Sequence record: PQ249395
Length of the DNA: 64,000 nt
Strand: one strand, 5' to 3'
DNA from: Escherichia phage Pu-Krd-SF1
Shown: one piece after another, positions 57,724 through 58,343 of the stretch
Numbering within the stretch: position 1 is the first letter of the stretch
Layout: each line of letters opens with the position of its first letter
Made by a program: the position numbers and the translations under genes
Notes under the pieces: generated by a model
The model's database searches: none
The model's input: only the letters and a program-made list of their open reading frames with translations
What the model was told of the DNA's origin: nothing

Positions 57724-57806
57724 AATTATGCCTTACTAAATTTGCCTTTAGAATCTCTTTTCATGAGACGACCTTTAATAAATCCATCGGGAATAATACC
57801 GTCTGG

Positions 57807-58343
57807 TTATATTAATTTATTTATTGCACCATTATTGACCCAAAAAGTTCCTGTTGTAGTCGGTTTGACTTTACATCCTTTTCTGGACTTTCTATTAGGA
57901 TGAACCATCCCTTTTACAAATCCTTCTGGAACAAGTTCTCCAGGTTTAATAAAAATATTTTTAGTTCCATTAGTGTAACAAGTTGTACCTAATACCGTGC
58001 CCGGTGAGTTTTCAAATCTCTTAGCAGAAGATTCTTTCATCTTTGCTATAACCTCTGTAGTCATAACAATTCCACCAATTCCACCAGGTTTCATATTATA
58101 ATAATTTTTGCTTTTTATTATTTCAGGAGTTATAATTTCTTCTTCATACATGTACGCTTCTTCGGAAGTTTTAAACTCTTTTAGTATTGTTCTAGAGAAA
58201 TTGTTTTCACCATATTTCTTTATAGCCTGCTGAATTGCTTTACCGGAACCAAGGTAACCATCATTCAAGTCATCAGTAGAGTGTTTTCCTATATACTTTT
58301 TACCATTTATTAGATTTGTTGTTTCATATACAAAGTGGTACAT
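57807..58343 (-). CDS. segE: GIY-YIG homing endonuclease, SegE-like, truncated by in-frame TAA (178 aa)
   Basis: N-terminal YHFVYETTNLINGKKYIGKH GIY-YIG motif; position between uvsW and inh. Confidence 0.6.
   Translation of the reverse strand: MYHFVYETTNLINGKKYIGKHSTDDLNDGYLGSGKAIQQAIKKYGENNFSRTILKEFKTSEEAYMYEEEIITPEIIKSKNYYNMKPGGIGGIVMTTEVIAKMKESSAKRFENSPGTVLGTTCYTNGTKNIFIKPGELVPEGFVKGMVHPNRKSRKGCKVKPTTTGTFWVNNGAINKLI

Follow-up and report, generated by a model that had tools for sequence, protein, structure and literature searches.

A premature ochre codon in the homing endonuclease gene segE of Escherichia phage Pu-Krd-SF1

In Escherichia phage Pu-Krd-SF1, the locus between inh and uvsW is segE, present as a nonsense allele and not in intact form. 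We analysed a window of 64,000 nt (the whole stretch of DNA under study, from record PQ249395), in which the first base of segE codon 179 shows a single C-to-T transition that turns CAA (Gln) into TAA. Our preferred reading, which we consider probable, is that this ochre mutation is real and recent, and that the 178-residue SegE would keep its catalytic domain while its recognition region is broken, so that cleavage and homing would be abolished or strongly reduced.

Reading frame of the segE locus

Read directly from the sequence, the minus-strand GIY-YIG open reading frame starts with an ATG at 58343, runs through 178 sense codons (58343-57810) and stops at a TAA at 57809-57807. Past this TAA, 26 more codons follow in frame, PDGIIPDGFIKGRLMKRDSKGKFSKA, before a second TAA at 57728-57726, which is followed by TT and then by the uvsW ATG at 57723 (502-aa helicase). 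The original prediction had described the interrupted frame, its 26-codon continuation and the second stop in front of uvsW, and all of these coordinates, together with the peptide, were confirmed. It had also taken the downstream codons for native C-terminal coding sequence. At the local base composition, an open stretch of 26 codons has a chance probability of about 0.16 and is not significant alone. It is more than chance because the 81-nt tail past the premature stop is identical at 81 of 81 positions to the 3′ end of the intact segE gene of Pu-Krd-SF6, so the proposed native origin of this tail holds. The features of the locus are as follows.

57810..58343, minus strand: truncated segE frame, 178 sense codons, equal to residues 1-178 of P0121, the commonest SegE allele
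58068..58343, minus strand: intact GIY-YIG catalytic domain, about residues 1-92 (AF2, Foldseek, family-invariant residues)
57906..57989, minus strand: first, degenerate C-terminal repeat copy, residues 119-146, G..CYTNG...VPEGFVKGM (internal BLASTP)
57768..57851, minus strand: second, canonical repeat copy, residues 165-192, GTFWVNNGAINKLI-Q-PDGIIPDGFIKGR, cut by the stop after residue 178
57807..57809, minus strand: premature ochre TAA, CAA (Gln179) in relatives (alignment, codon comparison, 41-mer search)
57726..57806, minus strand: untranslated segE remnant, 26 codons (residues 180-205) plus the native TAA (81/81 nt against Pu-Krd-SF6)
56215..57723, minus strand: uvsW helicase gene, 502 aa, downstream of segE
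58372..58379, minus strand: T4-type late promoter box TATAAATA, an exact match, 28 nt upstream of the segE ATG

Identity of the gene

The 771-nt query region matched 507 phage records, nearly all of Tequatrovirus type (Escherichia, Shigella, Yersinia and Salmonella phages), and the match covered at least 80% of the query in 165 of them. The T4 orthologue is segE (112057..112674), annotated as a GIY-YIG site-specific homing endonuclease between inh and uvsW; a 618-nt segE coding sequence is annotated likewise in Pu-Krd-SF6, the nearest relative, and in Aplg8. A four-way DNA alignment of the window, T4, Aplg8 and Pu-Krd-SF6 gave a mean column identity of 99%.

At the protein level, the Pfam family PF19835 (SegE_GIY-YIG) was found on the N-terminal half (E = 2e-9, 38.2 bits, cutoff 25), while the general GIY-YIG family PF01541 scored 21.4 bits, just below its cutoff of 22.6. 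Y6, Y17, G19, E67 and N83 are invariant in 35 homologues and are all present in the window protein. An AF2 model built with these 35 homologues reached pLDDT values of 91-96 over residues 1-80 and above 90 in the GIY-YIG domain, and its top Foldseek matches were the I-TevI catalytic domain structures 1mk0 and 1ln0 (probability 1.00, target TM 0.61-0.64). The protein therefore has the GIY-YIG fold with the conserved Tyr, Tyr-x-Gly, Glu and Asn by which members of the family are recognised. The gene is likewise orthologous to T4 segE and lies at the inh-uvsW position in the same orientation as uvsW; of the features expected of SegE, the complete 205-residue frame is missing, with residues 179-205 untranslated. 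The locus is the segE gene of a Tequatrovirus, free-standing and of the GIY-YIG homing endonuclease type; the assignment made from the letters alone is borne out by the orthology, the position and the Pfam match.

T4 SegE (NP_049795.1; Kadyrov et al. 1997, as cited in PMC2330249 and PMC2988022) shares with the window gene its place between inh and uvsW, the same late-promoter box, DNA about 98% identical over the gene, and a 205-codon frame with a GIY-YIG domain and a duplicated C-terminal module. Its 618 nt correspond to 205 codons plus a stop, the size given for it in the original prediction. The window gene differs by TAA instead of CAA at codon 179, with a product of 178 aa, and by a few missense differences (e.g. 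I74/L, E97/D, T120/K) that also occur in the common P0121 allele. I-TevI, the endonuclease of the T4 td intron, has the same N-terminal GIY-YIG fold and the same layout of catalytic domain, linker and C-terminal region, the last being its DNA-binding part. However, I-TevI is intron-encoded and binds DNA via a zinc finger, a minor-groove helix and a helix-turn-helix, whereas SegE is free-standing and lacks all three, carrying instead two copies of a small beta-hairpin module without a Pfam family.

A nonsense change found in a single phage

The changed base is at 57809 of the window (T on the sense strand, A on the plus strand). T4, Aplg8 and Pu-Krd-SF6 all have CAA at codon 179, and in the four-way alignment this transition is the sole difference between the window and Pu-Krd-SF6 in the segE region. 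When Gln179 is restored, the window protein becomes P0121, which is present on 126 contigs. The stop is thus a one-base nonsense mutation relative to every relative examined, which agrees with the earlier view of the gene as nonsense-interrupted and with the comparison to T4 segE and homologues that had been proposed as its check.

To follow the allele through sequence collections, we used a 41-mer placed so that neither side of the variant base holds an exact 28-mer, and megablast can therefore seed only in records with the same base. The T-allele 41-mer was found in none of 50,697 phage records, while the wild-type (C) 41-mer matched exactly in 148; this wild-type control also ruled out an artefact of the low-complexity filter as the source of the negative result. 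Among JGI metagenome contigs, the T allele occurred in none and the wild type in two. A scan of IMG/VR contained neither allele and is hence uninformative on the frequency of the T allele. The exact 178-aa protein was absent from an index of 153 billion genes, and no second nonsense allele at codon 179 was present among the 165 records covering at least 80% of the query. As far as the searched collections show, the stop allele appears to be private to Pu-Krd-SF1. The gene is the known segE of T4 and a point-mutated homing endonuclease gene is a known phenomenon; the specific allele is unrecorded but ordinary.

Another shortened segE annotation is public: P0132 (QZB89790.1, 125 aa), from a 151,790-bp genome named 'Escherichia phage T4'. 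It carries extra indels, with a Tyr lost and GGI duplicated, and looks like an artefact of assembly quality, not a second natural nonsense allele.

Recency of the change and the reliability of the base

Over the whole window there are 357 differences from Pu-Krd-SF6, clustered in mosaic patches at about 4-13 kb, 24-25 kb, 28 kb and 58.4-59.4 kb. The 29.5 kb from 28,868 to 58,440 holds only two isolated differences, the segE nonsense change and a missense change in gp48. On this comparison, the best reading of the segE change is that it is recent. The gp48 difference lies at 48317 in the gene of the baseplate tail tube cap (minus strand), where codon 248 is GGG (Gly) against AGG (Arg), i.e. R248G.

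A base-call or assembly error at 57809, or a minority variant taken into the consensus, would instead mean that the true segE has its full 205 codons. We regard this as an unlikely alternative, and of those considered it is the one to be taken most seriously. The substitution stands alone and in no other record, the remainder of the gene is identical to the commonest allele, and a real stop-making change is a priori uncommon, with a stop resulting from just 5 of the 615 transitions possible in segE; the public P0132 annotation, also a truncated segE, likewise looks like the product of an assembly error. In addition, the glucosyl-hydroxymethylcytosine of T-even DNA can interfere with the calling of C on some sequencing platforms. 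However, systematic miscalling of modified C should have left many C-to-T differences, and one is seen. The site is outside any homopolymer, and the assembly looks clean, with the two isolated differences over 29.5 kb noted above. Because indels relative to Pu-Krd-SF6 are found only inside the divergent mosaic patches, the assembly does not have the appearance of an error-prone one.

The last of these patches, at 58440-59373, is dense, with 54 substitutions relative to Pu-Krd-SF6, and extends from inside inh into hoc. It comes to within about 100 nt of the segE start, on the upstream side, and the 29.5 kb beyond are almost identical; judged from this pattern of differences, its edge near 58440 would be a recombination boundary adjoining a nuclease gene. 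The hoc gene (59083-60501, plus strand) encodes 472 aa against 376 aa in T4. Hoc holds two near-identical Ig-like repeats (QTTTLAVTP.SP..GVIGT...FTAALASQP.GASATYQWYVD), which suggests one extra decoration domain.

The C-terminal module cut by the stop

The internal repeat reported for this protein is real: NGTKNIFIKPGELVPEGFVKGMV and NGAINKLIQPDGIIPDGFIKGRL share 43% identity (pairwise BLASTP, E = 3e-7). We then aligned 35 full-length homologues with 34-67% identity. Outside the catalytic domain, the most conserved element is the C-terminal G-x-x-W-x-N-N-G-x-x-N-K-x-I-(5)-I-P-x-G-F/W-x-K-G-R, in which G172 and G191 are invariant and G165, W168 and R192 occur in at least 90% of the homologues; the same conservation holds in an alignment including SegB. 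None of the 35 full-length homologues ends at the equivalent of codon 178, an ending that had been named as a finding against the nonsense reading, and the shortest ones stop just after 'KGR'. The degenerate first copy (residues 119-146) is confined to the close SegE lineage and lacks the conserved W and R.

In the AF2 model, each copy of the module is predicted as a beta-hairpin with a short third strand (strands 122-124 and 129-131 in the first copy; 167-170, 175-178 and 189-190 in the second), with pLDDT values of 89-92 for residues 171-190 of the second copy. The stop falls directly after the second-copy hairpin and removes the third strand, the conserved Gly-Arg and the basic tail. Everything before that point, from the catalytic domain and linker through the first repeat copy to the second-copy hairpin, stays in the 178-aa product.

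A name for the module was sought by three routes. A Pfam search was empty; a PDB profile search with the module returned nothing but designed 'Pizza' propellers, whose matches were chance ones added together (E = 480 per stretch); and Foldseek with the whole AF2 model matched only the catalytic domain and found no solved relative of the module. Given its position in the protein and the layout of I-TevI (PMC2330249), we infer that the module forms part of the DNA-recognition region. The module of about 30 aa is common to SegE, SegB and many GIY-YIG homologues (P0001-P0114), and other family members have NUMOD3 motifs where the close SegE lineage has the duplicated module.

The SegB precedent and the activity of the truncated enzyme

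T4 SegB (L007 1754-2419) aligns end to end with SegE (E = 6e-29, 32% identity) and has the same terminal module. In a 2026 study, cells overexpressing a SegB variant that lacked the last 28 aa showed no growth defect, while wild-type SegB was strongly toxic (PMC13096335). This short SegB, from T6 phages that escape Septu, is the closest experimental precedent for the 178-aa SegE: both are Seg-family GIY-YIG nucleases that have lost 27-28 C-terminal residues, and both lost segments include the IPxGW/FxKGR element. The two also differ. SegB is a paralogue, and its truncation arose by recombination during segmental amplification, whereas the window segE carries a point mutation; in SegB the module is cut about 8 residues nearer its start, if T6 SegB has the length of T4 SegB; and no selective context is evident for the window allele, unlike for SegB.

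These data also bear on a further reading, in which the mutation is real and the 178-aa SegE still cuts DNA, though it binds more weakly or is less specific. The modular build of GIY-YIG homing endonucleases, whose catalytic and binding domains can be separated, as summarised for I-TevI (PMC2330249), speaks for such an enzyme. So does what the truncated protein keeps: the catalytic domain and linker, the first copy (VPEGFVKG) and the second-copy beta-hairpin. Nevertheless, the invariant G191 and the nearly invariant R192 are lost, the first copy is without the conserved W and R, and the comparable truncation of SegB left no detectable toxicity. We therefore judge an active truncated enzyme to be quite improbable.

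On the preferred reading of a real ochre mutation, translation would end 27 residues early, and the product would lack the second half of the family-wide module (IPxGFxKGR) and the basic tail. Site-specific cleavage, and with it homing, would most likely be lost or strongly reduced; by analogy with I-TevI and SegB, the module would belong to the DNA-recognition region. We infer that the base at 57809 is real and that SegE activity is lost. Residual binding and activity of the 178-aa protein are possible, since the first repeat copy and the second-copy hairpin are kept.

Readthrough of the ochre codon

The original prediction had also raised the idea of a site needing stop-codon suppression. 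Ribosomes would then pass the TAA, through programmed recoding or with the help of an ochre-suppressing tRNA from phage or host, and make full-length SegE at a low, regulated level. The frame is indeed open as far as the native stop. However, a recent mutation accounts fully for this openness (81/81 nt identity), and the stop is in none of the 148 records, all of which hold the exact wild-type 41-mer, and is thus not conserved. The RNA downstream is not unusually structured: a 141-nt fold around the stop and the uvsW start gave a minimum free energy of -17.9 kcal/mol against a shuffle mean of -19.8 (z = +0.61). A conserved stop with its extension and a stimulatory downstream structure, the two marks of a recoding site, are therefore both absent. 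A tRNA scan found no tRNA gene in the window, and the phage tRNA cluster lies outside it. UAA is, moreover, the most efficient terminator in E. coli. The suppression idea is not supported by conservation (0 against 148), by RNA structure or by tRNA genes in the window; nothing supports programmed readthrough, and we give regulated production of full-length SegE by this route hardly any weight.

A more limited version has a real ochre codon that is partly suppressed, for example by a variant phage tRNA-Gln, and yields a little wild-type SegE. Ochre-suppressor derivatives of T4 tRNA-Gln are known from classical genetics, and they would insert Gln and restore the wild-type protein. This version too seems highly improbable to us; if true, the suppressible stop would be a natural attenuation of SegE, a self-toxic nuclease.

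Genomic setting and the downstream gene uvsW

segE lies between inh and uvsW in T4 and in roughly one in three of the matching records, almost all of them from Tequatrovirus relatives. T2 and about 330 of the 507 matching records have an empty site without segE, in which, as the T2 alignment shows, the TATAAATA box is followed by the uvsW ATG within about 30 nt; in carriers, a 618-bp cassette sits between this box and the ATG. In Yersinia phage fPS-2, the annotation gives this box, at the equivalent place, as a predicted late promoter. Since it sits upstream of segE, segE and uvsW are probably co-transcribed late in infection.

uvsW is itself the reported target gene of SegE in phages without segE (PMC2988022, Table 1). 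A Shine-Dalgarno-like AAGG for uvsW lies at 57734-57731, inside the 3′ end of segE, and the premature stop would take ribosomes off the mRNA 81 nt earlier than the native segE stop. Because there is no notable RNA structure there (z = +0.61), we expect little effect on uvsW, which would probably still be expressed from its own ribosome-binding site and the upstream late promoter, both of which are kept. According to a review, a promoter of the downstream gene lies within segE (PMC2988022). The sole candidate near the mutation is AATAAATA (57825-57818, minus strand), with one mismatch from the late box. As it lies 9 nt upstream of the changed base, it is possible that the mutation alters an embedded uvsW promoter. 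Apart from TATAAATA upstream of segE, no other promoter was annotated in the relative, and a scan for sigma-70 promoters and terminators gave no more sites than chance.

A free-standing HNH endonuclease gene (55526-56218, minus strand, 230 aa) lies between uvsW and uvsW.1, and uvsW is thus flanked here by two homing-endonuclease genes. The HNH protein has two NUMOD3 motifs and a weak I-TevI-like DNA-binding tail, and the TTG start of its gene overlaps the uvsW stop. The gene is present in Pu-Krd-SF6 and absent from T4 and Aplg8.

Meaning of the segE nonsense allele

SegE homing needs an intact segE, and the open reading frame lies in a nonessential region (PMC2330249). The lack of segE in about 330 of the 507 matching records also supports its dispensability, and because segE is dispensable, no cost to the phage is expected. 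The change would then be a neutral step in the decay of a selfish gene, at the degeneration stage of the homing-endonuclease life cycle. That cycle of invasion, fixation, degeneration and loss (PMC2988022) likewise includes selfish nuclease genes inactivated by point mutation while the rest of the gene is still intact; what we describe differs in being a single instance.

In annotation, the locus should be given as segE with a premature stop, a pseudogene or truncated allele, and not as a homing endonuclease with a normal length of 178 aa. Beyond annotation, the allele matters little. If the base is real, it provides a natural C-terminal truncation of SegE for probing the unnamed module of the SegB/SegE family, and a small data point on the decay of homing-endonuclease genes in T-even phages.
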